A DNA stretch of 63,867 nucleotides, filler included, from Stramenopiles sp. TOSAG23-6 (taxonomy: Eukaryota): assembly GCA_900128565.1 (NCBI GenBank). It is 3 parts of 3 records of this genome, joined end to end, with 100 filler letters (N's around TTAATTAATTAA, not from the genome) between each part and the next. Parts side by side here need not be neighbours in the genome. Positions count along the whole stretch, not along the records: positions 1 to 21,870 come from LT636022.1; positions 21,971 to 43,775 come from LT636023.1; positions 43,876 to 63,867 come from LT636041.1. One strand, written 5' to 3'. The notes below the pieces were generated by a model, which was not told the DNA's origin, did not search any database, and was given only the letters and a program-made list of their open reading frames with translations. The stretch's first letter is position 1. Every line of letters begins with the position of its first letter. Shown here one piece after another: positions 6,170 through 44,872 of this stretch. The translations under genes and the position numbers were made by a program.

Positions 6170-8479
6170 TTATTGTAACATTCGGTTTATCGCTAAATTA
6201 ATATTCCCTCCACTAATTTCTAAGGATTTTCGAGCTTCATTATAGGAGGCTCCAGTAATAACAACAATTTGTTTTACTTTACATTCTCGCTCATGCTTAC
6301 TTGCTGCAATAGCCAATTCTGTATCTGACGGAGAGGTAAGCAAAGTATTTTCAAAACTTTGACAAATAGTTCTACGACTATTTGGTTTTGTACGAATATT
6401 TGTTTTAATTTGCTTCTTTGTTTTAATTCGCTTATTTGGATTGGATGGTGTAGCATCGGAGTTCATGCTAGATGCAGATCTTTTGAGCATCGAAAGAATA
6501 TTATTAGTCTTTTTGATATTATGTTTTNGNTTNCTTTTTTTTTTNCTNGTTTCGGGACATTCGACTTCCATGTTTTGTTAGAACATTCTTTGCTTCTACT
6601 ATAGCCTTTGCTTGTTTTTTAATACACGAAATTACTTCTTTCCCTTTTCTTGCAGTTACTACAGCATCTACAATAGGTGCTGGGTATTCATATAATACTT
6701 CAACCCGTTGTGCATCTCTGCGACAATTTGAAATGATATCATTATTAATACTTTTTGCACTCTTTCTTTTGCGAATTATACAAACACCAAACTTTTTTTG
6801 AACACTTGCCGGCATTTTCGATGGTTCATGAATCCATTCTTTTGTCACTTTTGAAAGTTCTGGTATGTACTTTCGTATAAATGTACCATACTTATCATGA
6901 TCTTTTCCTTGTTTTGTTACGGAGTACACTCTCATGGCATTAATACCAGTAACTCCACTTTGCATCTGTAGTTGAGGATAGTGAATACCAGGCTCATAAT
7001 CAAGAAAACAGCGAGCGAGATGTTTCCCTATTACACGCCAGTCTAACCATAAATTGTATGCAGCAAAAGAAACAACCATGTCATTTGGGAAAATATTTTC
7101 AAAAAGAAAATTCGTTAGGTTTGGAATTGCGTACGAAAAAAGAAACTTTAAAAAAAGAAAAAAAAAAAATTGTAAAATTAAAAAAACGTACATTGCTCGC
7201 ATTCGAAAATTTAACCACCCATGACGTGAAAGGCACCTCATACACGCATCAACCATAGGAAATCCAGTAAGTCCTTTTTTCCAAGCAACGAAATATTCTT
7301 CATTATGTTCACCTTTACCACAGCGAACCGTATCATAAATTCTAGACTGAGCATGTATTTAAGAAAATATTTCAAAAAAAATTTGTTAGGTACAAAATTT
7401 CGTACGAAAAAAAAATCGAATTTGAAAAAAAATAAAAACATACATGGTATTCAATATCAGGTTCACTTTCCAGCTTTTGTATGAAATGTGAACGCCACCG
7501 TAAACGAGAATGAAAACTTGCAAGTGATCTTGGCCAGCTGTCTTTAGAAAATGATCTACCTGCTTTTTTCTGTTTACGGACAAGTTTTTGCTTCTTTATT
7601 AATTCATGTACAACTCTTCGATTTGAGATATGTCCAAAAGTGAGATAGGCACTTACTGTATTGTAGAAAAATATTTCAAAATGTTTTTTGTTAGGTACAA
7701 AATTGCGTACGAAAAATAAATTCGATTTTTTTGTAAAAAAAAAAATAAAACATACATCGAGAACAAGAATTCCAAGCCAAGGAAGGCGATGAAATACCAC
7801 GTTGATACCCTTCTCCTCTCCTTGTCAACCAATTTTGAAGTACCTGCAGCGCGAGTGTCTCACCACCAGCTTGGCGTTCGACTCTATCTTCCTTATGGTC
7901 ATTAGAAATTAAACCAAGATCTGCAAGCTGAGCAGAAGACTGGATCCCACACGAAGGAAATCCACGACAAAGTTTAACAAAGTCACACGGACCAGGAGAT
8001 GGGTATTGTGGTTGTTGCATAAACTTATTATATCCTAATGTAAACTTGTCCCTATCCTTCAGCCCACGAGTCACACCATTTTGTGTAACTTCTTTGAAAT
8101 TAATCTTCATTTTTCGACAGAAACGTCGAACTCGTTTATCACGTTCAAAGGATTTTCCATGACCTGTTTCTTCATGAGCAAATACGCTTTTAATTTTCTT
8201 ACATTTGTTAAGATCGGCTAGAATATCAGTCGCTTCACCAATTCGGAAAATAATACATGGTTTGTCTTTCTCGTCGTCGAGCATTCCACGTATCAATTCA
8301 TCAAGTACTGATAGACCTTCGTTACAAAAGTTTATGTGACTACCATGGAGAGTTGGATGTGACAGCTGGTCTGGCTCATACATATAAATGATACAAAATG
8401 GACTACGTGCACGTACAGCGAGTGCTAGTGGTCCATTATCGTGAATTCGTGCATCCTTTTTCAACCAAACTACATTCAT
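6170..8479 (-). CDS. DNA photolyase/cryptochrome family protein, probably with a C-terminal UBA-like domain; exons 8479-7756, 7655-7444, 7352-7192, 7077-~6170
   Basis: Motifs VVWLKKDARIHDN, SCSRLSAYLTFG, WKKGLTGFPMVDACMR, WLNFRMRAMVVSF and FLDYEPGIH are contiguous after removing 3 inserts. The frame change near 6529-6548 lies in an N-containing homopolymer. Confidence 0.88.
7078..7191 (-). other. Family intron, GT-AT (114 nt, in frame, stop-free)
   Basis: GCA AT|GTACGT...AATGACAT|G GTT restores RMRAMVVSF. Confidence 0.88.
7353..7443 (-). other. Family intron, GT-AT (91 nt)
   Basis: TAC CAT|GTATGT...AAATACAT|GCT restores the frame into WKKGLTGFP. Confidence 0.88.
7656..7755 (-). other. Family intron, GT-AG (100 nt)
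   Basis: CGA T|GTATGT...AATACAG|TA AGT restores SCSRLSAYL. Confidence 0.9.
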
Positions 8480-8727
8480 TTGCTTCTTCAAGTAATGTGT
8501 TTTTGTTATTTGTTGTTGTGTTTCGTCTCAGGATCAGATCGGACTTTGTTTTTTGTTTTTGCGTTGTTTGAATAAAAACTCCGAAAAAGGGCTCAAAATT
8601 ACAGTTACATCTCTCCTTGCAATTGTACAAGTCAACAAGAACTTCATGTAAACAGACTAGCAAACATTCAACTTTAGATTGAAAAATAAAATAATGAGAA
8701 CGTGTTTTCATTGTAAATAATGCAAAA

Positions 8728-12534: not shown

Positions 12535-13873
12535 TTAGAAACATTTAGATCTCACTATTGTTTGACCAACATCATCATATTCTTGTTTTGTAATTTTCAT
12601 ATTTTTAAATGTACTCAATGAAGCTAGCATTGAGCCTCCTATCCAAGCTCCATATTTTCTCTGTGAATCTGAAAATACTTTTGTAGGTATTTCTATACCA
12701 TTTTGGTACGAAATATCTTGTTGCAATCTATTTATATAATTGGGTAACATGGAAGAGCCTCCAGAAATTACGACTGCATCATATAAAGTATTGCGAGTAT
12801 CTTCATCACATCCTAAAATGCTATCCTGTACTAATTGTGCCACTCCAGCTTCTGAGGCAACTGTATTGTGAAAAAATATTTTTTTTTTTTTTTACCGAAA
12901 ATAAAAAAAAAATCGTTAGGTACAAAATTTGGTACAAAATATTTTTTTAAAATTAAAATTTTGAAATTGAAAACGTACATTCTCGACCTAAAATTTCTGG
13001 GTTAAAAAGCGCCTCAGTACAAGTATATCTAGAAGCAGGATCAATTTGAATGATCTCACCATCGGGTAATTCATAATCAACACCATATCCTCCATCTTTT
13101 AGCTCATTTTGCAAATGTAGAGAAACAGCACAGGTAGCTTCTTTAATTTTTTGAACAATTGACATTTGCGATCTAGAAAATTTTCGACCACGCGAAGAAA
13201 GCATTTTCTGTAAATGTTTATCAATTTCGAGGCCAGCAACTTTATTTTTTTGCGATGCATAGCGTAGACCATATCCTTCGAAGACGGGTAGGGTTGTTGT
13301 CGCACCACCGCCAGCCTCTACAGCTAACCCATTAGTTCTCCCAGTTGAAAATAGAGAAAGTACAGGCTGTGGTGCCACATAAAATCCATTCACTTTAATT
13401 TTTTCAAACATAATTCTACACATATATTCTCTATTCTTGTTATTATTTTGACAAGAATCTGTCAGTAAAACTGGAAGATTATCCACCTCAGGATCAACGT
13501 CCATTGCCTCATACAGTGCCCAATCCCATATTTGTTCAATTGATTCTCTTTTCCCCTCTTTTGAAGACATTTCTCCATTGACAATTGGATAAGTTAAAGA
13601 CATTTTGTTTCTACGGGATAAAGCTGCTTCACCAACAGCAAAACCTTTTTCACTGATTCGAGCAGATACGTCATTTATCCGTCGTTTTTTCTGTTTTCCC
13701 AAAGTTTTTTTTCTAGGTTTGTCGGAATTCGTGTCATCATTACTACCAAGACCTACTGCTGGTTGACCAACTACCGTACGGAATACTGACTGTGGTTGAT
13801 CTTCTCCCGAATAACCTACTTTAGTAGAGAAACTACCAGCATCTATAACGATGGTTTGTTTTACGCTCTTCAT
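12535..13873 (-). CDS. Actin-related protein; exons 13873-12979, 12860-12535
   Basis: IVIDAGSFSTKVGYSGED, YELPDG, VVISGGSSMLP and RKYGAWIGGSMLASLSTF...KCF. Confidence 0.92.
12861..12978 (-). other. Family intron, GT-AG (118 nt)
   Basis: GAA T|GTACGT...GTACCTAAC...AATACAG|TT GCC joins the two actin-like ORFs in frame. Confidence 0.9.
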
Positions 13874-14075
13874 TGAATTTGACTTGAAAAAAACAGTGTG
13901 AAAGATCTTGAGGTCTTGGAGAAGAGAAATTTCTTGTAACGTTTTTTTAAGGTACCGGGTAACTTCTTTTTATTCCGGATAATATTTATAATTATTCTGT
14001 CCCCTTAACCACTTGAACACATTTTTTTTTCAATTTTTAATTTATTATTTTTTTGAAACTTTGCTCAAAATTCCG

Positions 14076-16428
14076 TCAAAATTCCTGAAATGTAAAATAA
14101 TTGGTATGCTCTTTGAATCCATAATCAAAAGGACTATAATTGTAAAGACTTTGCATTTCATTTATGTCTATCCCACAAGTTTGCAATGACTTTTCTAGTT
14201 GCTCTATATAATGAAGGTTATCAATCCTTGTTAATTTTCGTTTCAATTTCGAATTTAATGTATCAAATTTTTTACTTTGTCTGGAGTGAAAGTTAACAGA
14301 GTCCTTGTACCATTTCTGTGTGTATGTAATATATAACATTGGCCTGATTACATTACTTTTGTTTTCACCTCCCCCATGTATTTTGGAAAAATATTATTTT
14401 TTTTCGGTAAAAATTTGTTAGGTACAAAATTTCGTATGAAAAAAAAAANGTNAAAAATTCAATTTTGAAAACGTACATGAGTTAATTTCATATCAAAAAA
14501 TATTGCGCCACCTGCATTAAGTTGAGGTGAAAGAATATATTTTGAATCTTCCCTTTTATTTCTATGTGAATTTATATGAAACCTTGTCGGGCCATGTTCT
14601 TGTTTTATATCTATAAGTGGCCAAAATGAAATTATGTATTTTGGAAAAATATTTCAAAAAAAATCGTTAGGTACAAAATTGCGTACGAAAAAAAAACGAA
14701 TTTGAAAAAAAATTAAAACATACATACCATGTGACTTTTGAGTTTTGCCATCCGAAAACAACGGCCCAGTATCAGCATAAAATGTAAACAATATATCAAA
14801 ATGAAAAATAAAATATGTATTCATATGGAAGATGAAAACATCATATATTTTCTATAGATTTTGTAATACAAAAAGGGATTGAAAGTATTCCTTTACAATA
14901 AGTAAAAAAAATGAATATTTCATACGAAAATTCATACCTAACAAAATAAATAAAGTAAAACATACATGGATTATGAAAAAATATTTCAAAAAAAATCTAA
15001 AAAAAATCGTTAGGTACAAAATTTCGTACGAAAAAAAAAAGACGAATTTGAAAAAAAATAAAACATACATGAGAATGCTGACTTTTTGTCTTTGCTAATG
15101 ATGTCACGGATGAGAGTATACCTATTTCAAAATCATCATTTCCAAGTATTGAATTTAATAAATAATTCACTACTTTATTATCAACCAGCCCCGGATCATC
15201 AAATGTATCGTGAAAAAATATTTTATTTTTATTTTTTTGTTAGGTACAAAATTTCGTACGAAAAAAAAAACATCAAAATTGAAAAAAAATAAAACATACA
15301 TGGTTTTTGTAAAGGTAGATGAACGAGATAACGACCCTCAGAGCTAATCTTTCCCCTAGGGGAATTGTACTTGTCAATTTTCGTTTTCGATTCGTCTAAA
15401 TATTTCTTGAATTCAATTTTTTGAGCTTTTTGAATGTCTCTCAATAAGGATCCATTTATCACGTTTTCTATTGCAACAACACCACATGTATCAAGTATTC
15501 GAATTGCATGCCCAAGTATACGTAATGTTTCGATACTCTCTTTGTACATCGATCGAATTGAACTTGGTATATAAACAGTTATTTTTTCTGTTGTACTACA
15601 CCAGTTTTTGAGTTTTTCGTCTATACTGTTATATTTTAAACGCCAATCAATATACTTTCCACTAAATGTCCAATCGAGAGGCTTAATAATGATACCATTG
15701 TCTTTCGCTCTTTGAATAAGTCTAGATAAATGTTGTTCACTTTGAACTTCTATAGTTCTATCAAAACCACAATTCAAGGCAAGAACTTTTTGGAATGTTG
15801 TAATTGCAGCTGAAAGAAAATAGGTTCTTTCATCCTCTTTTCCTAACCAAATGAGACGCATGTATTGTGAAAAATATTTTTCTTGTAAAATTTGTTAGGT
15901 ACAAAATTCACTACGAAAAAAAACTTCATACAAAAAAAAAAATAAAACATACATTTGCGTAATCGCAATGTCATACAAATTAGCCACATTGTATTTTTCA
16001 CGAGCAACATCAATGAATAGTTGAAGCGCAAGTTGACTCTTTTCTTTGTCAGAGTAGTGTTGATTAGATAAGTCAATTGCTTTACTTCGTAATGCTTTTG
16101 AAGTTAAACATTTGTATGGTTCCATCGCCCACGCCTTTACGACTTGACGTTGCTGTACTGTATCAGATATACCAAACTCAGATAAAGCTGCACCGGATTG
16201 AGATTCCTCCAAAATAGCAGAAAAAACTTCACCTTCAATATCTTCGTTCAATATTAATTTCGAACGCTCGGAACGCACGTTGTAATTATCAACGTCTCCA
16301 AGCAAATTATTCAACCAAACTACTATTTCAGTAGAACTCCAGCTTGACTGTGCTTTCTGATTTTTAACACATTGGGCATATAATACAACTACTAATGATA
16401 GATGAAGAGTAAATGTAAAAGACAACAT
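14076..16428 (-). CDS. PhyH-type Fe(II)/2-oxoglutarate dioxygenase with signal peptide and SAM-like N-terminal region; exons 16428-15953, 15859-15300, 15202-15069, 14776-14724, 14633-14477, 14375-14076
   Basis: After removing the inserts: QHSH-ADTGPLF (HxD), FWPLIDIKQEHGPTRF...SH, AGGAIFFDMKLTH-GGGENKS...RPMLYITY. All exon phases are compatible. Confidence 0.85.
14376..14476 (-). other. Family intron, GT-AT (101 nt)
   Basis: ACT CAT|GTACGT...AAATACAT|GGG restores the HGGGEN distal-His motif. Confidence 0.88.
14634..14723 (-). other. Family intron, GT-AT (90 nt)
   Basis: GGT AT|GTATGT...AAATACAT|A ATT; frame restored. Confidence 0.85.
14777..14965 (-). other. Second, abutting GT-AT intron segment containing an inverted family core
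   Basis: Starts GTATGTTTT directly after the preceding element and ends TTTTAT|GCT GAT, as the HxD motif requires. Confidence 0.65.
14966..15068 (-). other. Family intron, GT-AT (103 nt)
   Basis: TCT CAT|GTATGT...GTACCTAAC...ATAATCCAT|. Confidence 0.8.
15203..15299 (-). other. Family intron, GT-AT (97 nt)
   Basis: CCA T|GTATGT...GATACAT|TT GAT gives KPFDDP. Confidence 0.85.
15860..15952 (-). other. Family intron, GT-AT (93 nt)
   Basis: CAA AT|GTATGT...AATACAT|G CGT joins ORFs 15895-16449 and 15229-15861. Confidence 0.85.
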
Positions 16429-16808
16429 GATGGAACTTGAAAAATACACACTAGTACGATATTAGCTAGTACCCAATATCTGCACACAAAAAAAAAATCT
16501 AACAAGAACGACGAAATCTCCGAAAAAATGGAAAAAATGTCCGATGAGTGTTTTTTTTGCTCTCGTTAGGGTTAGGGTTGCCTTTGATGTTTTTTTAAGA
16601 AGCAAAGAAGGCCTGACAGGCTGACACAAGTGGATAATAGCGCGATAATAGCCCACAATGCATCGAATGTAGTTTTTGTTACTGGACAACAAAAATAGTG
16701 ACAGTTCATCACAAAAGAAATTTGAAAAACACGAATTTTCTGATTAAACTTAAATAGGAGATAAAACTGTTTTTTTTTTTATTTTCTTGAATAATATTAC
16801 ATTTTGCA

Positions 16809-17570
16809 TCAAACTGGTTTCTCAGCTGGTTTATCTACGTCTGAAGATACTTCATCCCCACTATGACTAGATGGCTGGTTATGTATTAAACCAAGCGAAG
16901 CAGCTCGATCCCGTAAGGCTAGAACTGACCGAACATCACGCAAATGTTGAATTTGTTCAAGAAATGGGAGGATATCTAATAAGGCAGTATCATTTGGGTC
17001 ATCTACCCAACCACAAATAGGCACTGCATTTTTCTCACATAGAGAGTAACAAACAGGAGAGTTATCAACTAAAAGAACTTTAGATTGGTCAGCTCGAACT
17101 TTGCTTAAATCTTTCATAAAACATCCAGCCACTTCAGTGCAGCTCTGACGATAATATCTCTGCCTTACAACTCCCTTAGTATCAATACGATCGACAACAG
17201 GATCCGCATATAGTCTTTTACTAGCTGTAAATATTGCAATGTTATACCACTGACTGACATTTTCTAAAAATTCAAGTAAATGAGGCCGACACGATACGTA
17301 AAAGGTACATAATCTAGAACCCTCGTCGAACACATTTACCATAAAATCATAGTCTGAAGTTGGCCGTGTTGTAGAATGTACAAGAGTTTCATCTAAATCT
17401 AACACGAGAGTACATCTATTATGCACTCGCGCACTTACACGCGACTTACCATACAATCGAGTATGACTACAGTTCCTTGATAGACGAGATTTGGTAGCAC
17501 GAGTCTTACCAGTGGACTCATCGTGTGGGAAAAGTTGTGACAGAAACCACGAAGCAACTGTCGAAGCCAT
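16809..17570 (-). CDS. FCP1/CTDSP (NIF) family HAD phosphatase, Dullard/NEM1-like
   Basis: LVLDLDETLVHS, RPHLLEFL, FTAS..YADPVVD and KDLS...LVDNSP motifs. Confidence 0.92.
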   Translation of the reverse strand: MASTVASWFLSQLFPHDESTGKTRATKSRLSRNCSHTRLYGKSRVSARVHNRCTLVLDLDETLVHSTTRPTSDYDFMVNVFDEGSRLCTFYVSCRPHLLEFLENVSQWYNIAIFTASKRLYADPVVDRIDTKGVVRQRYYRQSCTEVAGCFMKDLSKVRADQSKVLLVDNSPVCYSLCEKNAVPICGWVDDPNDTALLDILPFLEQIQHLRDVRSVLALRDRAASLGLIHNQPSSHSGDEVSSDVDKPAEKPV

Positions 17571-17890
17571 TTCTATACTTGTTTATATTACTATTCAATA
17601 TCGATGTGGGTTTCTGGTATCACCCAATTTTTAATCGTTTACTGTAGGTTGCTTGCCCAATTATTAATAAATAGTAGGGAATTTAAGCAAGAAGAACTTG
17701 GCCAAAAACCAGAATGTTCTGTGATTGTGAAGATCCGTTTTACGTTTTACACGAAATAAAAAAAAAAATTGCAATGAATTTTTTTTGATGTTGATTGATG
17801 TTTCAAATGTTTGAATTGAAGAAGAGTTCTAAATTCTAATTCTTCCTCCTCCTCGAGGCTATCATATTTAGAGACTGTCAATTATACAAC

Positions 17891-18989: not shown

Positions 18990-19054
18990 TTTTAAGTACA
19001 AAAAATAGTACGAAATCGTTGCGTAGTTTTAAGTACAAAAAATAGTACGAAATC
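18981..19054 (+). repeat. 37-bp perfect tandem duplication spanning the EB1 stop codon
   Basis: gttgcgtagttttaagtacaaaaaatagtacgaaatc occurs twice in tandem. Confidence 0.9.
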
Positions 19055-19325
19055 TCACTATACGTACAACACTGCGTAGTCGTCTAATTACTACTACAAC
19101 TATATATTAATATATAGCTATATGGTCTAGTACTCAAAAACGTTTCTGATATGATATAGATGTTATAACAAAGATAGGAGAGCAAGGCTAAACAATAATA
19201 AATGAAACATTTTTACAACAAAAATAAAAAGTGTTTCATCTCAAATTTATTTTGTTCAAGTTATTTACATTTTAAATTATTTGATGTTTTTACATTAATT
19301 TAAAAATCATGCGCATTCAGTTAAA

Positions 19326-19664
19326 CTAGTATACCTCAATGAAAGGAGGAGTAAAACTGAACTTAACGATATTTAAAAGTCTCAGGGCGACGAGTGTATT
19401 TACAAGGAGAATAAAGCAAATGACGGCAGTAATAGCGTACCATTTAGATTTTAAAGCCGTTTTACGAGCTTCTTTTCGATAGCCATTATTTTTTTGTTGG
19501 CTTGAAATGTAATGGTAACGTACTGAAAAGATACCAATTGGGAAAAACATAACTAAACTCAACCAAGATAACCACATATAACTAGGCACATATATTATAT
19601 CGTCCGCCAGACCAATTCTGTGCTGGACTGGAAGGTCCTGAGTAGTATAACTAAAATATTGCAT
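19326..19664 (-). CDS. CD225/dispanin (IFITM-like) small membrane protein
   Basis: VPSYMWLSWLSLVMFFPIGIFSV...G...EARK.A..SK followed by a second hydrophobic helix. Confidence 0.7.
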   Translation of the reverse strand: MQYFSYTTQDLPVQHRIGLADDIIYVPSYMWLSWLSLVMFFPIGIFSVRYHYISSQQKNNGYRKEARKTALKSKWYAITAVICFILLVNTLVALRLLNIVKFSFTPPFIEVY

Positions 19665-21785: not shown

Positions 21786-21814
21786 GTATGTTTTATTCAT
21801 CGTACATTTCAAAC

Positions 21815-21849
<35 letters not shown>

Positions 21850-21870
21850 AATATTTTTATAAAAAATTTT
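21786..21870 (+). other. 5' part of a family intron truncated by the gap
   Basis: TAT|GTATGTTTT followed by poly-T up to the Ns. Confidence 0.7.
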
Positions 21871-32526: not shown

Positions 32527-35500
32527 ATGACAAACTCTAAATGTATAGTAGATCAGTTTGTAGATAAATTGCGAGAGCATTATCACGAACGCCATAGTCA
32601 TGGAAATGTTACTCAGAGCGATGATTCATGCAAAAACATTCTATTGCTTTTTAGAAACCATATGCCTTCAATATATAAGCGATTTGTTTCGCCCCATGTT
32701 AGGGCTGCTTCGCGGGAGGCAAACGCAAAACGAACATCTCTACCACCTCCCCGTCATATAGTGCCATTTTGTACAATGCTGAATCTGTTATTGACAAAAG
32801 CTGTGTGTCCACACTCCATTTCTATTTTCCATAGCTGGCCTTTGGAAGAAAAGTCGTTTGCTCAATTTTTCCAGTTATACACTTTACTTGGTTTACAACA
32901 ATTCAAAATACATCACCATATAATTGCAGATACCCTCCTGTTACTTACACAAGTGCTATATGAATATCAACTACTTTCTTTTGTGTTATTGTTTGAAGAT
33001 GCAACACTATTGTTACAAGACCTGATAGTAGCCGAGGAATTAATTCAGCGAGCACCAGAAAAATTTTGTGGGCTTGAAATAGCAAGTTTCTGTACATTTT
33101 CTAAGAGTTGCAAGCGTCAGTGGGTAGAGCATAATAATAGTAATAAAAGAAAAGAAACAAAAAAATGTAAAGTCCCGGGCGATTCTCCAAACAGAAATTT
33201 TTTACCTTTAATGATATGGCTTCCTGGAAAAGGAATAAAAAGTGCATGTGAAGCAATTACAAAAGTAAGACTTCTTAAAAGAGCTACACAGTGGATTTTA
33301 GCGGGTATGTTGGTCCCTGAATCTGCCCAACAATTAGCGCTTTCAATGCCCTCTACAATTTCAAAGCCTCCGACGAATTCAGTACCAAACCCTAATTCTA
33401 TGTCACCACCTCCACTCATTGCGACAGAACGTGAAGAAACACCTACTTCTACTGCAAGAAATTACTATGCTGGTAATGGGTATCAATTTATTGTTAGTAG
33501 CACAGGTATAGTTGACATGTTATGGTCATTAACACAAGCCTCTATTAATAGGTGTGCAAACAATATTGTCCAGAAAAAAACGAACACAGAAAATTCGAAC
33601 TCAATAAACAATTATTCTACTTTCACTTTACAGTTACATGTAGCGACATCAACATTACGACTCATTCAAAGTATGCTTATTGTGGGAGGTATTATATATA
33701 ATGATATTGATGCCAATATTGGTACTTCTATAGCTGGGACAGGATTCTCTACAATATTGACTTCTATTTTGAAATTTCTTGAAAGTTTGCATGAATATGA
33801 CAGACAAAATATTGGTATTGATAATAGCCCTTCTAATGATGTAAGTAGAATAAGATCTATTATCTGTGATATTGATAAAGCAGCTTCGGCATGTATTGCT
33901 CTCTGTCTCCGAATAAATTTTTCGCATTCAGTTAGTCAAAAATGTTTTGGTTTTAGTACGTGTCCAAATGCAGTTACCAGTGTTATATCATCAAATATTG
34001 CGACTATTATAAGAGATCATCGGCATAAATATGGATCAAATAATGCATCTAGAGATGCATCCAATTCTATTTTGATGAAAACTTCTGGTAATTATTTATT
34101 GCTTGCTAGTAATATTTCTGACATTATAAAGGTTATTGTAAGTACGGTCCATTCAACACATGCGTTGCAATTACGTGTCACTTTATCACAAACTCTACGA
34201 AAAATGATTGACACAAATCTCATAGCTCCTGTCCGAGCGATGGATATGATAGGATTGTTAATGCGCGTATTTATTAAAGAGGAATATGATACAAAACATA
34301 TTACCAAAAATACCAAAAATACCAAAAATACCAAAAACACCAAAAATAGAATGAATAATGATTTTGATGACAATGTATGTTTTTATTTATTTTTTGAATT
34401 TCGATTTTTTTTCGTACGAAATTTTGTACCTAACGTTTTTTTTTTGAAATATTTTTCCAAAATACATGTTCATCATGTATTTAGATATGAAGTGAGAAAA
34501 AGTATTGTACAATGTATAGTATCTGTACTAGATAGTGTTTCCGAGGTAGATCGAGTGAATATATTAACAATTGCGAATGAAAATTTTGTCGGAAATTCCC
34601 GGGATAAACAACATGATACATGTAGTACTATTCAGGTAACAAATATTAGTAGAAATAAAGGTAAATCAACTCGAAAGAGAAAACGAAATCAAACAGAAAA
34701 AATATTGAAATGTCAATCTAACCCTAACCCTAATGATAATTTCGAAAAAAAAAAGAAGACAGTTCACAATATGTCTCCATTATATTTCAAATTCAAATCG
34801 ATGATTAATAATGCAATAGAAGCATCAACAGAAATTCAAAGTATGTCGCATATATGTACAGTGCTTATTGCTTTGTTACGAGTATATCATTATAATAATG
34901 TTAGGGTTAATGCGATGGAGGATAGAAAGGAAAGTAACCCTAACCCTAATCATCAGTGGTCTGACCCTGGTACCCAAGAAAATAGAACCACTGATGCTCT
35001 GGAAAATAGAAATATTGATAACCCTAACCCTAATAGTAAATCTGCAGCATTTTGTATAATACAATGCTACTTGACCCTTCTGAAATCTGAAGGGTTTTGT
35101 ACTCTTCTGGAAACATCAGACGAAAACGAAAGATTGACAATTTCAATAGTGAGTGCGGCACTTGATGTATTTTTTATTTTTTTTCAATTTTTTATATATT
35201 TTTTTTTTTTTGAAAATTTTGTACCTAACAAATTTAAGTTTTTTTTTTTGAAATATTTTTTCATCATACATGCCGCACACGAAATTATCATTGCTTTATC
35301 AGGAGACTGTATAGTGGCAGATTGTTTACAAGAATGGAATATCCTGGCAAAATTAACTTTTCGTGTAGGCTGTTGTAAACAAATATTAAACAACTTTCAC
35401 TTTGAGAATTTGGAGATTTTTGAAAATTTTGTGCCGATTCCACTTCGTGGGATTTCTTTCTGTCTTTCAGTTTTACCTCTAGTGCTTTCAAAGATGAAAT

Positions 35501-38500
35501 ATACAGAAGATGAATTGTCCGACCAAAATTGGTTAAAGAGAGGTAATCAACAAATATGGCCGTTGTGTAGATTTTGGGATGCCTTAGAACATGTATGTTT
35601 TATTATTTTTTTTAACAAAAAAATCGAATTTATTTTTTTTTTTTGGTAAAAAAATTTTGTACCTAACATTTTTTTTTAGATTTTTTTTTTTGAAATATTT
35701 TNCNAAANTTCATGATTGTGGAGAAATTCGTGTAGCTGCTGTTCTTGCTTTACCAGCATATATACATGAATGTAGTTCATTCGTGTTGAGTTCAAAATCT
35801 GGAGAAGATGTACCTTTCTCCATATCTCATAAGTGTATTATAGAAAAATCAGTTTTAGTAAATATGGCTAATGTTATTATAGATTTGACATTATGCGATG
35901 ATGATATACGAGTTCGACTTGCTACAATTGATGTTATGGCATCGCTTGTGTGTGCTTGCTCCGGGAGTGCATCTTGGTCCCTTAATAAAGAGATGCGAAA
36001 CGTTGGTTCCCATGCGTTTTTGTCTCTTCAATGCAGCAGTAGGGATACAATCACAATACAAAATAATATTGTAGAGAGTGATATTGAACGGTACAGAGAA
36101 ATGTGTCATTACTGTTTGAATGAATGGATGTCGCGTATACGATATCTATTAGCTTCTTCTAACTCTGAAGAAAGAGTGTATGCAGCTCGGGCTATCAATC
36201 AATTCGTTGCACACGGAAGTATCAATCAACTTTCAGAATGTAGTCAAGACAAACCTTTCAGAAATAATAGTATTCAGATATCATCAGAGTCTATATCGCC
36301 ACCTCCACTCACTGCAACAGGGTCATCAGTATTGGAACAATTGATTTGTCTACTCCGAGATCATTCCTTTACTGTTCGTGAATCCGTTGCGTTAAGTATG
36401 AGTATATTTGTGCGCCGCCAAAATGAATTTCTAGAAGTTGTTTTTCCAAGAAATTCGTGTAAGCAAAGTGTCTTTGTTGCAACCCTGTTGAGAATGTCAA
36501 AGCAGTTTCCCGAACAATATTATGAAATTGTATGTATGTTTTCATCATTTATTTTATTTTTGTTTTTTTTGCTCAAAACAATCCAAGTTCTGTCGTTGAA
36601 TTTATCATGTACCTAACGAATAACAAATTTGACATATTTTTTCATGATTCATGTATCATTGGATGCGAGTCACGTCGAGAATCTCCTTTACTCATATGGT
36701 CACTCATTCAACTCTTTACATGTTGGATTGAATGTGTCAGTAGAAATCATGAAATCGTACCCAAAGGAAATACTACAAATGATACTACGAAAAATGCAAA
36801 TATCGCTATTGCAGCTTGTCATTTTGTTCGGAGAATTGTGATTGCTCAAAAGGCTAACTCGCTACATGAGCTAATTGAAGCAATTCCAAATGGTCGTATC
36901 GAAATATATCCACATTTGGTGCAAGAACTTTTCCGCCCTGCGTCCAAAATATTAATGAAACAGAGTGATCATTGGGCTTCATCATGCAATAATAGTCATA
37001 TGGATATTGATGAAGGTAAGAATACAAATAATTCGGAAGATGTATTAGATATGAAATTTGGTACGGATATAGTGTATACTCAAATGAAGAAGTTCTTGTG
37101 TGAATTTGCTTCACATTCTCAGTGGTCTGGTCATGATGCAATAGTCACATTAATTGATGAAGCATATGACATAAGCTTACAACAGCATGGAATGGAAGAT
37201 GGTATTGTACTCATGTTTTTAAGACGAGTAACCCCATCTGTGTTGTCATCATTGTCTTCAACAAATAATCGTGCAACGCTTTTAGTATTAGCTCAACAAA
37301 TGCAAGTTTTGCCTGCCTTCATCTCCGACAAAAATGGAGGCTTTGCAAAATATGACTATAAGCCGAAAGAATGGGTTCGCAATTTATTCATTCCTACCCA
37401 TAAATCCCGAGGAAAGCAAGCACTAAGTACAAAGTATATTACGTTTATGCTTGCTGACATCATCTTAAATCCTGTATCTGATAGTGGAATGAATGCTATC
37501 CGAAATTTAATATATGACGTATTTGATACCAGTGTTCATTATGATGAATTAGTACACGTTTTCTTTTCAAAAATATTAGTATTTTTGTCTTGGCAACTAA
37601 GTGGTCTAAAACCAGAATATGCACGAAATGCATTAAAAACACTTGCTAAAATACTACAGCACACTGATGCATTCCCCAAGTTGTGTGCAAATACTGCAAC
37701 AAAACAGAATTGCGCTTCAGACTCAGTAAAATCTAAAACATCACATAATATGACGACCTCTCCTGATGGTATAATTGATTTGACAGGTAAACCTGATCAT
37801 TTGAATGAAGCTACTGGAAATGAAAATAATTTATCCCCAAATATTGATGTGAATAGTTCACTTGTAACAATGCGCTCGCGTCTTGTAACTAAGCATTTTT
37901 TGTATATCATAGCTAAATTATTCAGCACAAATTTCTTAGAAAGCGTCGGTTATGTTAGAGGTTGCAAACGCGCTTTGATTTCTATGCAAGAACTTGTACG
38001 TATGAATAGAGAAGGTAGAGCTGAGCTGGTCCGATTGAACAAAGAAGTAACTGTAGATGCATTACTTGATCCGTATTTCCCTAAAATAATGGGGACACTT
38101 CAACTATCATTACGCAGTAAAAACCTTTCCTTGAGATCTGTTGCGTGTGACACTTTGAAAATTTATTTGGAAGGTATATCGTGGCCAACTATTTCAATTA
38201 ATTTAAATTCTATCGTTGTAGAATTATTGACTTGTATTAAACCTAGTATTGTAAAAAATGAAGACAGAAAAACAACAACAAATTATAGAAATAGTATCCC
38301 TCCAAAAATTAATCATAACCCAAATCATTCTGACCCTAACACAGATGTTGATCCTCACCTGAAGGCTCTCGACATTCTCCAATATTTAATTGTCGAAAAT
38401 CGAGATCGTTTGAAGGATGGGTACCCACAGATACCGTTTGTGAAACCAATGATTTCAGAATGGTTTTTTGAAGACAATAATTCAAATGCTAATTTTTATA

Positions 38501-41500
38501 ATGTAATGCGGGAGTGTGACGATACATCGAAGATATCTGGTGAAAATGTAAGATCTGCCGCTGGCAATAATAATGGTAATAATGATAATAATGATAATAN
38601 ACTTTCGCAATTACGATCTGGTCTTTTAGAAGTCTGTTCAGTTGTTCAGAGTGAATTGGGTGATCAATCAATCGAAACACGGATCAAATCTCTTCTAGAT
38701 TTAACTTCTCACGATAATGCTGGTGTCAAAGCTGCGGTATTAAACGAATTACGTCGGACTTTACAATCATTTGAATCATCTGAATCATCTCCACATTTAT
38801 TATCTATCAATGGTGTTGGTGCTGGTAGCAAAATGAGACCTTTAATAAATCAAGTTATGAAAGCCTTGTTGATGTTGTGTCGCACAGAAACTACAAAAGA
38901 AGTCTTAGAAAGATGCGCGATGTGCTTTGGACAATTAGGTGCAATTGATCCTGATAGAATATGTATTGATACATCAGAGCAAGAAATTGTAACACTCACT
39001 GGTAATCAAAAACGCGGAAAGGAACTCGTGTGTGAGTTGATATCGGGTTATTTAGTGAGAAGTCTCGCGCAAAATCAGGATACATTATTCGTTGATCGTG
39101 TGGCTGTCGCAATCCAAAATCTACTATGCGCTTTAGGGAAAATGTTTGGTATTTGCCAAGGAAATTGTGCTATAACTCATGGCGCCGCAGATGCACATAA
39201 AGAAGATTTACCACCAGCGTTGTGTAAACTATTTGATGACGTTGTCCTCGAAGTTGTAAGACCATACTGGAAGACTCGATACACACTTTTGAATCCAATT
39301 ATTTCATCTATTACTCTAATTTACCAACCTGGTATTTCTTTTCAAGATTGGCTTGGTAAGTGGACCCGGTACTTGACGCATTTTGTTACTGGTGAAGATA
39401 AACCCATATTTGAGGCATGTAGAGGTATGTTAGCATACACTGTATCAACACCCTTGTTTTTATTACCATATTTAGTCAAAAATTTTCTTGGCAGTGAAAT
39501 TAATCCTGATGAAATTGGCGACTCTCAAGATAAAGAAGTTATTTCAGTAGAATCTGTCAATACGGTAAATATTGTACTAAAGGAAGTACTTGCAGTACTT
39601 CGAGGAAGTAGTTCAAAAAGAACGCAGTTTGCTGGTGAAGCCCGTCGTTGCACACAAGCTGTGTTCTCTATGTTAGATCAATTGGATTCATGGCAAAAGT
39701 TTGAAAAAAAGAAAGCAATTGCGGGACAACGCTTATATGCTAAGAATATTTCCACAAAGACTAAAAAACGCTACGATTTTGAATTTAAAGTTGTGGAGGA
39801 ATTATTTAAGCGAATTCCTAGGAAACTTCTAAGCGATGCTGCATATCATTGTGGTGCATTCGCTCGATCTTTGCAAAGTGCCGAAGAAGATTTGCGGAAT
39901 AGATATAATTCGGCAAGTCCTCTGGAAGTAACATCATCACATAATACTAGTACGTGGTCCAGAGAGGAAACTCGAACACTTCAGAAGATCTATGTATGTT
40001 TTCAGGATCAATTTTAAATTCATTTATTTTTCGTACACAATTTTGTACCTAACAAAAAAAAATGAAAATATTTTCCCAAAATACATGCATCGTTAGAAGA
40101 AAGCGATGGTTTAAGCGGCGTTGCAACATTACGTGCAAAGTCGACAAAAATTAAGAAATCTGTGGAAACTTGCAGTAAGACTCATGTATCTTCAAAACGA
40201 AGAAATAATAAAANATGTTTAGAATCTCTTGATACTCAAGAAAAACAAAAATATTCTGAAGTTGCAGGAATTTCCCTCGCAGAACGAATTATTGATTTTG
40301 TAGATGCTGCTAAATGGACAGAAGCGCAAATGTGTTACGAACAAGCGTTACAGAGAAAGGTGTATAATGAAAATGTTGGGAAGAAAATAAGTAGTAGTGC
40401 AGTATGTAATAACGAATTTCTAAAAGATGAAAAAGAAAATGAGAAAAGACTTCGTTCGGGAGAAGGCGTCCCCGATGACTTTACGAAACGATTAAAGATT
40501 AGTAATTCTAGTAAGAATAAAAAAAAACAGTTTGTTAAGATGAAAGGAGGTAATCGTCGTTCTGCGCGTGTATCCTCTAGAAAATTGAAGAGTAAACAAA
40601 AAACGATAGACAATGATAATGAAGACAATATTGAGAAAATTGCAAGTCAATTAGATGAACAATTTAAGTCAGAAACAAACCCAGTGAAGCAAAATGTAGA
40701 AATTATGATTGAAGAAAAACAAAAACAAGATAACGAAAATCATAAACTTACAGAAGCTGAGTTGCATGAAGGAATTTTAACATGCTTGCGCAATTCAGGT
40801 CAATTGGGATCAGTACTGATTCATGTCGAAGGCATTGGCGTTTCCGCTCCTGTTCTTGCCAAACGACTTATGCATTTTGCAGCCAATGCAGCTTGGCAGC
40901 TCGAACGTTGGCCACAATTAGTTGAGTGTTTAAAGCGATCGCCTTGTAAAAGTTTAGTAAATTTCGCTGCTGGTACTGATCATCTTTCAAATGAAAAAAC
41001 AAACTATGTACAATTTAATGATTCAACAAAGTTACCTGATGATGCATTTTGTAAGTTGAGTAGAAATAATGTCGCAAGTGATAATAATTTTGAATTATAT
41101 ATTGGCGCTGCATTGTTAGCCTTACACCAGCGACGGTATAAAGAATTTAAAGAAATTTTATCAACTGCGCGGCTTGAGATTATGGGTCCTCTGTCCGCTG
41201 CTTGCATGGAGTCGTATAGTCGATCATATCCACAGTTACTTCGTTTACACATGCTCTCTGAACTTGAAGATGGTGTAGCTCTTATCTGTGAGAGTGCAGG
41301 AGTTACAACTTCAGGTGCCAGTCGCGAAGTGAACATTGGTGCTTTCAAAAAAAGATGGGAACGTAGAATGGAACTGACCCCAGCGACTATGGCTATACGT
41401 CGTCCTTTGATGGCATTACGTCGGGCTGTATATAGATTAGGTGGTCAGCATGACATGGTTGGTCACACTTGGTTAGAACTAGCAAAACTTGCACGCGTTA

Positions 41501-43465
41501 GCAAAGATTACATGTGTGCCCAATATGCCTTGACAAATGCGCAACATTTGAGAATGTCATCTCAATTAGATACAGCAAGTAGTGAAAGGTTTTTACTACA
41601 TTTTGCGGCGTGTACTCGAATGGAATCTGCAAAATTACTGATGACAAGAGGCGAAGAACGAAATGCACTTGTACAGATTGAGCCTTCTGAATTTAATAAA
41701 AATGGGCGTTTTATAACACATACAGCTGTAGATAGTACTGATCCGAAAACAATTCGTGCAGCACAAGAAGAAAGTTTACAACGAGCACGAACTTTATTAT
41801 TAGCGACCGAATGGTTACAGGAATTGAAACTAAAGCAAGGTAGTGAATTGGTTGAACGATTTAATGCGGTAGTGGAAGAGTGTCCTCGCTGGGAGGAAGG
41901 TCATTTTGCTCTTGGCAGATATTATGATTATGTTCTAACCGAGTTGGAGAAACGAAAAAAAGATCCACAATCAATATCTACTGTTAGAGAATATGTAATT
42001 CATGTGATTCATAATTATGGCACGTCCTTGCAATTTGGTAGTGACAAAATCTTCCGATCAATGCCGAGATTATTGACATTATGGTTCAAATATGGATTGT
42101 TATTTTATAAACAAATTTCAATGTCTCAACGGACAAACGCAAACTGTAGTGTGAACGGACGCAGAAAATCCCAAGTAAACAACGAAGACGATGAAACACT
42201 CTGTAAATTAATGATGGCATTAGTCGCAAAACTTCCTTCCTATCAATGGCTTACAGCATTACCACAGTTAATTTCGCGGATTAGTCATGTTTGTTTTATT
42301 TTTTTTTCAAATTCGTTTTTTTTCGTACGAAATTTTGTACCTAACAAATTTAAGTTTTGTTTTTTTGAAATATTTTTCCAAAATACATCCGAATGACAAA
42401 GTTTGGAATATTTTACGTGAAATTATTGCGAAAATTTTGTATACTTACACTGGGCAAGCTCTATGGAGTGTTATGGGTTTAATGCAATCTCAAGGTGTCT
42501 TACGAAAAAAACGTGGAACTGACATTGTGAAAAGGGCAATATCTTATGTATGTTTTCATCAGAAAAAAAAATCATTTTTTTCGCATGAGAATTCTATGAC
42601 CAAACGAATGTTTTTTCTAAAATATATATATATTTTTTCACAATACATGGTGATAAAGAACGAAATATAACGAGTCATCAATTAAGAACTGCTAAAATTC
42701 TTTTTGAAGAACTCATAAAATTTGCTTTAAATCGAAATGGACGGCGGGGTAAAATGCAATTACAATGGAAGCCTTCTGTTTTACAGTCACCGGCGTTGAG
42801 GAAACAAGGACTAGTCGTTCCAACACAACAGACGCTTACTGTTACATTACCTGCTGCATCACCTTTCCGGGATATTCCGGGAGATGATCCAGATTTGGTG
42901 TTTCCACCCACCGAACAAACAGTGATTTATGCACTTGGTAAAGAAGCCGATGTAATGGCATCGAAAGAACGACCAAAGAAAATGAATTTGGTTGGTAGTG
43001 ATGGAAAACTGAGGCATTTCTTATTAAAGTCAGAAAAAAAAGGCGATTTGCGAAAAGATTCTCGACTGATGGAGTTTAATACAGTAGTAAATCGATTATT
43101 ACAGCGCAATCCTGAGACAAGAAGGCGTAAGATTCAACTTCGTACATATGCTGTTGTTTGTCTCGATGAAACATGTGGGATTATGGAATGGGTGTACAAT
43201 ACTGCTGGTCTCCGGATATTGATACGGGATTCATATGTGGCCGCAGGTCACCAGAAGCCTATGATCATTACAACAAATATACGTTCACAATATGAAAAAA
43301 TACAAAGAGAAAATAAGAATAATATAACTAAAATGGCCGAAGCATATGAAAATGATATTTTACCACATTTTCCCGCGATTCTTCACCAATGGTTTCTTGC
43401 ATCATCTTCTGATCCAACGAATTGGTTCGATCGTAGAGTTGCGTTTGCTCGCTCTGTCGCAGCGT
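32527..43465 (+). CDS. ATR: PIKK kinase ATR (3' end missing); exons 32527-34374, 34468-35166, 35272-35592, 35714-36533, 36653-39993, 40087-42288, 42389-42547, 42649-43465
   Basis: HEAT/UME region, GQLGAIDP, LQKIYASLEESDGLSGV, FAT domain SMPRLLTLW, QLISRISHP, kinase SKERPKK...GSDG...DLRKDSRLMEF...LRTYAV...CGIMEWV. Confidence 0.93.
34303..34347 (+). repeat. 9-bp coding tandem repeat (TKN)x5
   Basis: accaaaaat units. Confidence 0.85.
34375..34467 (+). other. Family intron, GT-AT (93 nt, in frame, stop-free)
   Basis: GAC AAT|GTATGT...CCAAAATACAT|GTT; full family consensus. Confidence 0.83.
35167..35271 (+). other. Family intron, GT-AT (105 nt, in frame, stop-free)
   Basis: CTT GAT|GTATTT...CATACAT|GCC. 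Confidence 0.82.
35593..35713 (+). other. Family intron, GT-AT (121 nt)
   Basis: GAA CAT|GTATGT...TTCAT|GAT joins two ATR ORFs in frame. Confidence 0.83.
36534..36652 (+). other. Family intron, GT-AT (119 nt)
   Basis: GTA T|GTATGT...GTACCTAAC...GATTCAT|GT joins two ATR ORFs in frame. Confidence 0.8.
39994..40086 (+). other. Family intron, GT-AT (93 nt)
   Basis: ATC TAT|GTATGT...AAATACAT|GCA gives LQKIYASLEESDG, matching the ATR LQKLYAAMHEPDG-type motif. Confidence 0.92.
42289..42388 (+). other. Family intron, GT-AT (100 nt)
   Basis: AGT CAT|GTTTGT...AAATACAT|CCG gives QLISRISHPNDKVW. Confidence 0.92.
42548..42648 (+). other. Family intron, GT-AT (101 nt)
   Basis: TCT TAT|GTATGT...AATACAT|GGT; in frame with the kinase ORF. 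Confidence 0.85.
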
Positions 43466-43555
43466 GTATGTTTTATATGAATTTCTAATTTAATATTTTT
43501 TTCATACGAAATTTCGTACCTAACGATTTTTTTTGAAATATTTTTCAAAATACAA
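43466..43555 (+). other. Family intron with uncertain 3' end (AA at the acceptor position)
   Basis: GCG T|GTATGT...GTACCTAAC...AAAATACAA; the downstream sequence does not continue the ATR kinase. Confidence 0.55.
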
Positions 43556-43710
43556 GCTCGATTAAAACAAAGAAAGAAAAAAAAAAAAAAAAATGTAGAT
43601 AAAAATAAAATTGAAAAAAAATCTGAAAGTCAAATTTATTTTACAGATAAGAATCGTTGCCAAAAATATGTTGAGAGATGTAAATCAACCTATTTTACCT
43701 TTGTTCACGC

Positions 43711-43775: not shown

Positions 43776-43875
43776 NNNNNNNNNNNNNNNNNNNNNNNNN
43801 NNNNNNNNNNNNNNNNNNNTTAATTAATTAANNNNNNNNNNNNNNNNNNNNNNNNNNNNNNNNNNNNNNNNNNNN
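43776..43875. other. Assembly gap with artificial TTAATTAATTAA linker
   Basis: N-runs flank a six-frame stop linker. Confidence 0.95.
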
Positions 43876-43927
43876 GTACCTAACAAATTTAAGTTTTTTT
43901 TTTTTGAAATATTTTTCCAAAATACAT
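43876..43927 (+). other. 3' part of a family intron ending in AT
   Basis: GTACCTAAC...CCAAAATACAT|GAA AGA opens the RNB exon in frame. Confidence 0.78.
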
Positions 43928-44872
43928 GAAAGAGATCCAATGCTTGATTCGTGTTTACAAGTTCTCGCAACAGAACCCATGCAAGAAGCGCAGTATTTTA
44001 GATGTGGTTCTGAAATGGATCCAGCTTCTCGTCGTCATTATGCATTAAATATTCCATATTACACTCATTTTACATCGCCAATTCGTCGGTATGCGGATGT
44101 ATGTTTTATTTTTTTTCAATTTCGAATTTTTTTTCGTACTAAATTTTGTACCTAACGGGGTTTTTTTTTCAAATATTTTTCCAAAATACATATAATGGTT
44201 CATCGTGCACTAAGTCTCATAATAGATGTTGGTTCTAATAATTCTGAATTAAATAATTTGTTAAAAATTAATCAAGAAAGTGGTCATAATGATGAATCTA
44301 CGAATGAAAAGATGATTGCATTGGCGTATCAGCATATTGGGCGTTCTATTGATGATATTGAAAAGGTTGCTGAACACTGCAATGAAAAAAAAACTGCTTC
44401 AAAATCAGCTCAAGATGAAAGTGATAAAGTATTTTTTGCCGTATGGCTGCGTAATAAATACCGTAGTGGTAATCCTGTGGAGACGTTGGGGATTGTTCTG
44501 AGTATGGGTGAAAAGTATTTCCGTATTTTTATGCCACAATTTGGATATGATCAACAAGTGACTTGGCAAGATATTCAGCCAGATGCTGAATTGATTGGAT
44601 TTACAGGTTCTGAGCATCAAAGATGTCTCATTCGACTACTGGGTGATATTTCAAGTAGTAGTGTTGATAATGAAGAAAACAAAACAAGAAACGAAAAACA
44701 AGACAACACAAAAGAAAAACCAGAGATTGTTAGTAGTAATAACACTATTGATTTACAAGTTCTTCGGCGTTTAAAGGTTTGTCTTACCGCAAACGTAGTT
44801 AAAACTAGACTTAAAATAAGTATATTGATACGTGGAGTATGGGATGAATCAAAAGATGCATATTATTCTTGA
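43928..44872 (+). CDS. DIS3L2: DIS3-like exoribonuclease 2, C-terminal part (5' end lost in gap); exons 43928-44098, 44192-44872
   Basis: [34 protein letters not shown] and [14 protein letters not shown]. Confidence 0.85.
44099..44191 (+). other. Family intron, GT-AT (93 nt)
   Basis: GCG GAT|GTATGT...AAATACAT|ATA ATG restores the RNB signature [13 protein letters not shown]. Confidence 0.93.

Follow-up and report, generated by a model that had tools for sequence, protein, structure and literature searches.

The window analysed here, a stretch of 63,867 nucleotides from Stramenopiles sp. TOSAG23-6 (assembly GCA_900128565.1; 63.9 kb of contigs joined end to end, with spacers), carries one repeated family of short introns that mostly begin with GT and end with AT. 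The family, the pattern of its flanks and the GT-AT introns were confirmed as real, and we regard it as very probable that they represent a mobile intron family spliced GT-AT. Introns of almost all eukaryotes end in AG. In this sample, 23 of 30 introns end in AT while keeping a textbook donor and branch site. The explanation we favour, with a probability of roughly 55%, is that these introns form an introner-like family, i.e. a short non-autonomous mobile element which would have inserted in many unrelated genes of a MAST-3-type stramenopile and would be removed by U2-type splicing.

Copies of the family follow the pattern GTAYGTTTT...TTCGTACGAAATTTTGTACCTAAC...AAAATAC plus AT, are 84-136 bases long and break otherwise open reading frames (ORFs). 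The fuller layout consists of GTAYGTTTT(A/C)..., a T-run, TTTCGTACGAAATTTTGTACCTAAC, a second T-run and GAAATATTTTTCCAAAATAC, after which comes AT. The 9-mer GTATGTTTT occurs 18 times in the window, where 1.75 occurrences are expected. A first profile was constructed from 16 N-free copies shorter than 130 bases, out of 17 found by pattern, and gave 30 matches at E<=1e-3 in the window; a second profile, from the curated copies, gained only partial or decayed ones. The curated set consists of 30 introns with both ends set (29 plus the copy at 42548-42648). These introns sit in about 20 genes of different families and explain nearly all ORF breaks, and all clear genic copies are on the sense strand of the interrupted gene or ORF. 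The similarity spans the whole 90 bases, including stretches without a known signal such as the palindrome TTTCGTACGAAA and GAAATATTTTTCC, and there are subfamilies in which the 5' and 3' variants are linked. Three of the four contig ends at the spacers lie inside family copies, in keeping with a high copy number. The preliminary description of this DNA had placed the family at 7353-44191; copies are found there, and also outside this range, at 7078-7191, 45461-45551 and 63751-63852.

Within the core (e.g. 7390-7410, minus strand), TTTCGTACGAAA is a perfect 12-base palindrome located right before the branch site, and most young copies keep it. It could be a protein-binding site or a hairpin. 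It also gives weak profile matches on the opposite strand.

The donor is GTATGT in 17/30 introns and GTACGT in 8/30. The branch motif is GTACCTAAC; CCTAA(C) was found in 29/30, and its presumed branch A precedes the 3' end by 27-55 bases (median 37). The element also has a T-rich tract. As read from these motifs, donor and branch distance are of the predicted major-spliceosome (U2-type) pattern: the GTRNGT-like donor, the YTRAY branch 20-50 bases upstream and the pyrimidine tract are present, and the AG acceptor is mostly absent. The U12-type RTATCCTT donor and the TCCTTRAC motif near the 3' end were not found, positions +5/+6 being GT and the branch lying at a median of 37 bases upstream. In several AT-ending copies, a TAG about 12 bases past the branch A is evidently unused (14985-15000, minus strand; 35660-35680 and 63815-63825, plus strand).

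Directly upstream of the introns, the exon ends in AT in 24/30 cases; the remainder are GT (twice), TT (twice), GA and AC. The 3' dinucleotide of the intron is AT in 23/30, AG in 5/30 and AC in 1/30 (21146, uncertain), with the candidate end at 43466 unassigned, and 19/30 introns have AT on both sides. The first base downstream is G in 21/30 and the commonest upstream triplet is CAT (9/30). As chance background, we used the 50,152 coding bases of the window, where AT makes up 9.5% of the dinucleotides. On this basis, the probability of finding at least 24/30 preceding ATs is 9e-20, that of the downstream G is 3e-9 (5e-7 given the preceding AT), and C at position -3 among AT sites (9/24, versus 16%) has P = 0.0098. 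The preliminary description had reported, on 29 copies, 24 with a preceding exonic AT and 21 with a downstream G, AT at the end of most copies and CAT as commonest upstream triplet, and all of this holds, in essence, in the curated set. The two canonical introns of an LRR gene, the only other introns definable in the window, follow TT and not AT; the exonic AT seems specific to the family. At AT sites, 14 introns are in phase 0, 5 in phase 1 and 4 in phase 2. These phases agree with the availability of AT and of ATG in coding DNA (p = 0.20 and 0.29), which is the expectation if targeting takes place on DNA.

That these sequences are excised as GT-AT introns can be seen from the reading frames. 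When each copy is excised from its first G to its last base, the longest ORFs on either side become continuous in frame in 26/29 cases; the three misses are 18703 (a shorter frame fits and RNA supports it), 31883 (two acceptors two bases apart) and 63751 (window end). In the case of a photolyase-like gene, removing three introns (one AG-type, two AT-type) gives a protein that is gap-free at every junction compared to eight homologues, with one junction in the invariant block NFRMRAM^VVSFA (here and below, ^ marks a boundary). In the case of 45461-45551, the exon ends match consecutive parts of PF08645 (PNK3P) and of 1yj5_A (mouse PNKP), the exon end ...GRGKHPDE aligning to ...GRGKLPAE at residue 90 of mouse PNKP; since this copy has no upstream AT, frame and homology together indicate that its acceptor truly is AT. 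In the case of a DIS3L2-like gene, the alignment of the upstream exon extends to its very last residue, at ...FTSPIRRFAD (residue 708 of 8e27_A), and that of the downstream exon starts only at its residue 43. Altogether, four AT-ending copies have no upstream AT, namely 18703 (GT), 28125 (GA), 45551 (TT) and 63751 (AC), and thus the boundaries are GT-AT and not AT-AC.

RNA evidence consists of contigs assembled from the seawater metatranscriptomes of two studies and matched to an N-free part of the stretch; parts without contig cover carry no information. One contig (X4 record 28) joins 18701 straight to 18838 with no mismatch on either side, skipping 136 bases in a manner equivalent to GT...AT. 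A second contig (X1 record 1) covers 14476-14633 and 15068-15198 with exactly 53 letters between them, as many as in the exon 14724-14776 that GT-AT boundaries predict (the middle piece being deduced from lengths), and it fits the removal of 14634-14723 and 14777-15068. Scarless removal of the element plus one AT, as claimed earlier, is thus borne out by the frames, by the gap-free homologue junctions and by two RNA contigs.

The metatranscriptome contigs also bear on the abundance of the family. Over 14453-21870, the summed depth of the contigs from two runs reached thousands on the element and tens or less on the exons, and many contigs link separate family copies. Those samples contain the family in great abundance, whichever form it takes there (unspliced RNA, excised introns or DNA). 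Metagenome contigs scanned with a 17-base core of the element gave 64 loci; searched with the profile, these contained no family copy, only two matches that were short and weak (E = 9e-4 and 3e-4); viral contigs scanned with the same core gave 6 loci, taken as chance 17-mer matches without profiling.

To account for this pattern, we propose that the element inserts as DNA at AT, with a preference for (C)AT(G), and that the AT would be duplicated on insertion, so that its 3' copy becomes the acceptor. The element itself would provide the yeast-like donor GTAYGT, the branch site and the T-rich tract. Splicing would then remove everything from the element's G up to and including the dinucleotide that adjoins the downstream exon; this dinucleotide is AT in about three quarters of the copies and AG in about one sixth. 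The mRNA would thereby return exactly to the pre-insertion sequence with a single AT. A later T-to-G change may have turned some acceptors into AG; the AG-ending copies score below the AT-ending ones against the family profile, a difference that is not significant (Mann-Whitney p = 0.16). The spliceosome of this lineage would have to accept AT. That the acceptor AT comes from a 2-bp target duplication rather than being borne by the element is, for us, an even bet. The wider claim, that a single 2-bp-duplicating transposon wrote most introns of this stramenopile and that the spliceosome shifted to AT as its main acceptor, is put forward tentatively, at somewhat less than even odds.

Other target duplications were considered and rejected. 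With a TA duplication in the style of Tc1/mariner, the empty site would exceed the spliced product by 6 bases, contrary to the gap-free alignment. A duplication of 3 or 4 bases (ATG, CATG) is countered by position -3, which is not copied (C in 9/24 upstream, nearly always C at the intron end), and by the downstream G, present in 21/30 only.

Insight on the mode of insertion can be gained from the compound intron of 292 bases at 14777-15068 (minus strand), whose removal is in frame and fits the length of the RNA contig. It contains a complete sense copy (14966-15068), a copy in antisense orientation (about 14887-14965) and a decayed remainder that ends with TTTTAT^G. The position of the complete sense copy coincides exactly with the CAT^G edge of an older intron, and this older intron starts with the copy in opposite orientation, with its CCTAAC core on the plus strand and the gene on the minus strand. 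Because reverse splicing cannot produce antisense copies, the nested antisense copy did not arise in that way, and its orientation would speak for insertion at the DNA level.

A number of observations weigh against the proposed insertion of a transposon with AT duplication. To compare the ends, the 28 bases at the start of each copy were aligned locally to the reverse complement of its 28 final bases, with shuffles as control. The mean score was 13.3 versus 12.0 for the shuffled ends, and in 3/27 copies the score was reached by <=5% of the shuffles; the inverted ends are no better than chance. The remnant of inversion consists of GTAT/ATAC at the tips (a single family-level coincidence), a T-run/A-run and a TTCAAA/TTTGAA block. 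The imperfect terminal inverted repeats (TIRs) that had been described thus come down to GTAT/ATAC plus T-run/A-run at the level of the shuffles. RNA-fold z-scores were mixed (-4.4, -2.2, -1.6, -0.8, +0.4, +0.5), Pfam searches with 37 translated stretches of the window gave no transposase domain, and there is no clear intergenic copy in the window, which is almost all coding. The antisense nested copy reads AA[...]AT and not AT[...]AT. Upstream AT is missing in 6/30 copies, two of which are among the least diverged (45461-45551 and 63751-63852); it is absent in 4/23 AT-ending copies and present in 4/5 AG-ending copies, and so the upstream and the terminal dinucleotides do not copy one another in every case. 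An average of 4.2 further ATs lie between the branch A and the actual acceptor, and at 28778-28892 and 20920-21028 a CAG five bases before the end is apparently skipped, as judged by frame only; the acceptor is therefore chosen neither as the first AT nor as the first AG. The metatranscriptome contigs might also be intron-less DNA, which would give the same junction. Finally, because AT is its own reverse complement, the AT pair can be read equally as a duplication, as a portion of a palindromic end, (C)ATGTAT...ATACAT(G), or as an AT that the element bears, combined with a preference for AT^G, and all three predict the same empty site. As a whole, the AT-duplication transposon architecture of the preliminary description is plausible and has precedents, and about half of it is shown: the AT repeat and the C/G flanks stand, the inverted ends are not supported, and the acceptor from the duplicated target is at about even odds. 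Likewise, its view that a TIR supplies the donor is right in that the element carries its own donor GTAYGT, and is not supported for the TIR, which is at chance level.

The rival explanations differ mainly in where they place the AT and the splicing machinery. One possibility, which we consider rather unlikely, is that the element carries its terminal AT (unit GTAYGT...ACAT), makes no duplication and lands after an exonic AT, usually before G, be it through an insertion machinery that prefers AT^G or through reverse splicing into junction-like sites, reverse transcription and recombination. This would explain the four of 23 AT-ending copies that do not follow AT, of which two are young (45551 and 63751), the four of five AG-ending copies that do, the nested antisense copy with AT on its 3' side only, the inverted ends at chance level and the sense orientation of every clearly genic copy. 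However, sense-only survival is expected from selection too, and the route through reverse splicing is contradicted by the one nested copy that is antisense to its host gene. Moreover, a single change separates five of the six non-AT upstream dinucleotides (GT, TT, GT, TT, AC) from AT, a pattern expected if duplicated ATs decayed, and the identity of exon end and intron end is the signature of target duplication in Fritillaria and Micromonas (PMC13326754; PMC11282704, the latter in its accessible part). It is improbable that the AT-preceded copies are AT-AC introns (ATGTATG...AATAC) that use the known pairing of the A and C ends, in which case the repeated AT would only simulate GT-AT boundaries. 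In 19 copies, flanked by AT at either end, the product does not differ between GT-AT, TG-CA and AT-AC; yet the AT-AC register is excluded at 18703 by the RNA joint, at 45551 by frame and homology, at 28125 by frame and at 63751 by the upstream AC. The AG-ending copies, in addition, have the same donor, and GTAYGT is a classical donor in the GT register, while the AT register would need ATGTAT.

Removal by a minor (U12-like) spliceosome tolerant of varied 3' ends, in parallel to the transposon-derived U12-type introns proposed for Physarum, appears very improbable to us. GTATGTTTT does agree with the U12-type donor RTATCCTT(T) at 7/9 positions, but +5/+6 are GT and not CC or CT. Furthermore, conservation is highest in CCTAAC, whose branch A lies 27-55 bases (median 37) before the 3' end, compared to 9-12 for the Physarum motif. 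Rfam gave no match in the window, which says little on minor small nuclear RNAs. Hardly credible, lastly, is that these are old introns which resemble each other through splicing constraint or gene conversion and not through mobility. Intron-poor lineages do often have rigid donor and branch motifs. Nevertheless, the likeness here extends over the full 90 bases, stretches of no known signal included, subfamilies have linked 5' and 3' variants, nested and tandem copies exist, and the assembly breaks within copies.

By analogy, the non-canonical introns of Fritillaria appear to be the closest parallel to the introner-like family proposed here. In Fritillaria, a YAY triplet stands before the 5' splice site and again as the last three bases of the intron, AT is the 3' end seen most often (44% in F. 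pellucida, 34% in F. borealis) and is accompanied by a U-rich tract, and divergent U2AF paralogues bind the odd intron ends (PMC13326754). For these introns, an origin from a transposon resembling miniature inverted-repeat transposable elements, with TIR and target duplication, has been proposed (PMC13326754; accessible part of PMC11282704). Both systems share the exon end that repeats the last bases of the intron and the frequent AT acceptor. In contrast, Fritillaria is an animal (a larvacean tunicate), with mostly AG donors in F. borealis, whereas here the host is a unicellular stramenopile with the canonical GTAYGT donor in 24/30 copies; the repeat is of two bases (AT) instead of YAY, with C at -3 in 9/24 upstream versus about 20/23 at the intron end, and one family makes up nearly all introns seen. 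Acceptors derived from target duplication and AT acceptors are thus already known from Fritillaria, and what is new is the lineage.

Similar comparisons can be drawn with other protists. According to the accessible text of PMC11282704, the introners of Micromonas pusilla and Aureococcus anophagefferens combine a splice site of the element with one that stems from the target duplication and are scarless; like the present family, they are short repeated introns in unrelated genes with scarless removal. In what that text describes, they have clear TIRs, duplications of at least 3 bases and GT/GC-AG ends, while here the duplication would be of 2 bases, a TIR cannot be demonstrated and AT serves as acceptor. 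In the case of the U12-type introns of Physarum polycephalum, a transposon with TA duplication was proposed and GT-AT is among the ends (bioRxiv 10.1101/2020.10.12.336362, accessible portion). As far as that portion goes, both have intron edges marked by a palindromic direct repeat of 2 bases, a donor of RTATxTTT form and GT-AT ends, and the differences are a branch motif 9-12 bases from the 3' end with the minor spliceosome in Physarum, versus CTAAC about 37 bases upstream and a GTATGT donor here. The Amoebophrya introners are again repeated non-canonical introns of a marine protist, with short direct repeats across their boundaries; the part of PMC7789003 available describes inverted repeats of 8-20 bases forming hairpins, highly variable ends and a GC-rich genome, whereas the present introns form a single conserved family whose donor and branch signals are standard. 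Among the papers listed by our searches, we found no published report of introners or GT-AT introns in the MAST-3-type lineage. In the accessible main texts of three MAST-3 genome papers (PMC5778133; bioRxiv 10.64898/2026.04.17.719054; PMC12614181), splice sites are not discussed, and their supplements may bear on the matter.

If the pattern of the window extends genome-wide, the Fritillaria case would have an independent counterpart in a much simpler organism, and there would be a second, unicellular example of mobile introns and splicing machinery evolving together. The pattern would place near-total intron gain from one family, along with AT acceptors, in an ecologically common unicellular lineage, and would offer a clean case of intron gain in which one family accounts for nearly all introns seen, with a measurable target context. 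Changes in acceptor recognition (U2AF, second-step factors) that tolerate AT would be open to comparative study, and AG-ending copies may show the maturation of acceptors after insertion. It would also have practical consequences, as gene finders limited to GT-AG would split or discard such genes, deflating gene counts and mimicking pseudogenes.

The copies are described in the following by position in the window. At its left side, on the minus strand, the intron at 7078-7191 (AT^GTACGT...GACAT^G) in the photolyase-like gene is the one with the gap-free NFRMRAM^VVSFA junction. The intron at 7353-7443 (CAT^GTATGT...ATACAT^G) matches the profile and is in frame, with the gap-free junction EYH^AQS, and the AG-ending intron at 7656-7755 of the photolyase-like gene, which has an upstream AT, is supported by profile, frame and the junction SCSR^LSAY. 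The photolyase/cryptochrome-like protein (6519-8479, minus strand) ends with ...KHGSRMSRN..., close to single N bases at 6528-6548, and its closest homologues run on into a C-terminal zinc-finger-like tail (W.C..CTF.N). The 3' end of the gene may be incomplete or may hold one more intron.

Further along the minus strand, an AG-ending intron at 12861-12978 belongs to a subfamily (GTACGTTTTCAA... / ...CACAATACAG); it lies in an actin-related gene, is in frame, and its junction is contiguous in the EukProt protein P0147. The intron at 14376-14476 (CAT^GTACGT...ATACAT^G) is in frame and the match of X1 record 1 ends exactly at its boundary, while 14634-14723 (TAT^GTATGT...ATACAT^A) fits the spacing of the same contig. 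Beyond the compound intron follow 15203-15299 (CAT^GT...ATACAT^T) and 15860-15952 (AAT^GT...ATACAT^G), both supported by profile and frame. On the plus strand, the diverged intron at 18703-18838 (CGT^GTACGT...CTCAT^G) without upstream AT is the one joined in X4 record 28. Profile and frame also support 20920-21028, which ends in AG (CAT^GTTTGT...GTATAG^G), and 21340-21430 (CAT^GT...ATACAT^C). At 21146-21232 (GAT^GTACGT...ATACAC^G), the acceptor is uncertain, AC or a downstream AT or AG, with several in-frame ends.

On the second contig, four curated introns lie on the minus strand. The intron at 28010-28125 (AGA^GTTCGT...ATATAT^G) lies in a SAPS-domain gene and is supported by frame; 28266-28376, with an AG end (CTT^GTACGT...ATATAG^G), and 28584-28690 (GAT^GTACGT...ATACAT^G) by profile and frame. 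For 28778-28892 (AAT^GTGCGT...CACAGTATAT^G), use of the CAG five bases before the end would break the frame. On the plus strand, 31089-31172 (CAT^GT...ATACAT^G; profile, frame) interrupts an MFS transporter gene, and 31883-31989 (TAT^GT...AAATATAG^A) has as acceptor either AG or the AT two bases earlier. The intron at 34375-34467 (AAT^GT...ATACAT^G) in an ATR-like kinase gene joins in frame ORFs of 627 and 393 codons. Frame likewise supports 35167-35271 (GAT^GTATTT...ATACAT^G), 35593-35713 (CAT^GT...TTCAT^G), 36534-36652 (TAT^GT...ATTCAT^G) and 42289-42388 (CAT^GTTTGT...ATACAT^C), and 39994-40086 (TAT^GT...ATACAT^G) joins ORFs of 1156 and 769 codons in frame. The diverged intron at 42548-42648 (TAT^GTATGT...ATACAT^G) had been missed by the first profile. 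The copy at 43466-43556 follows CGT and has the candidate 3' end ATACAAG; its family-equivalent end is AA and the nearest in-frame ends are AC or AG, the remainder of the kinase domain being off this contig.

On the third contig, 44099-44191 (plus strand; GAT^GT...ATACAT^A) is in frame in the DIS3L2-like RNase gene, 45461-45551 (minus strand; GTT^GTATGT...ATACAT^G), without upstream AT, joins ORFs of 166 and 176 codons in frame in the PNK3P phosphatase gene, and a copy at the window end, 63751-63852 (plus strand; CAC^GTATGT...ATACAT^G), matches the profile after an ORF of 4313 codons. Counted from 50810 to 63775 on the plus strand, there is a single open frame of 4321 codons ending at this intron on the window edge, for which Pfam gave no match at E<=1e-4. 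Partial copies lie at the artificial contig joins (21786-21870, 43711-43775 and 43876-43927), and two decayed copies in tandem (E = 4.6e-8 and 0.0029) at 22360-22545 on the minus strand, downstream of the LRR gene, in an untranslated region or intergenic.

The window has about 35% G+C and is nearly all coding, with very long ORFs; an Rfam scan of it matched no family. The spacers at 21871-21970 and 43776-43875 read 44 N, TTAATTAATTAA and 44 N, separate contigs being joined there. At the second one, the ATR-like kinase gene stops before and the DIS3L2-like RNase gene begins after it, and therefore neighbours across spacers need not be neighbours in the genome. Regarding the host, a conserved phosphatase of the window is identical to a Logan protein and shares a cluster with a EukProt member, and the actin-related gene corresponds to P0147, which bears a MAST-3-type name and is identical apart from two internal gaps. 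We take the host to be a MAST-3-like marine stramenopile, at the level of the lineage, going by the name of this protein. A tunicate origin of the window was rejected, as the best named relatives of the phosphatase are protists and fungi and the identical protein is MAST-named.

Two side observations concern single genes. The two canonical non-family introns lie at 22700-22993 (minus strand; GTAAGT...TACTAAC...TTCAG) in the LRR gene (LSGEIPKEIGQLTNLTSL; 22700-23020), whose frame stops soon after them, so that the gene may be truncated; their upstream exons end in TT. They are near-identical (GTAAGT...ATACTAAC...CAATTCAG) and probably come from tandem duplication of an exon-intron unit. In the case of the actin-related gene (12980-13969, minus strand), P0147 is identical to the ORF and is without 16 and 10 residues that are open in the DNA. 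The two gaps look like falsely predicted introns in the public model, and the first stretch lost, SVFRTVVGQPAVGLGS, resembles a conserved motif of the actin fold.

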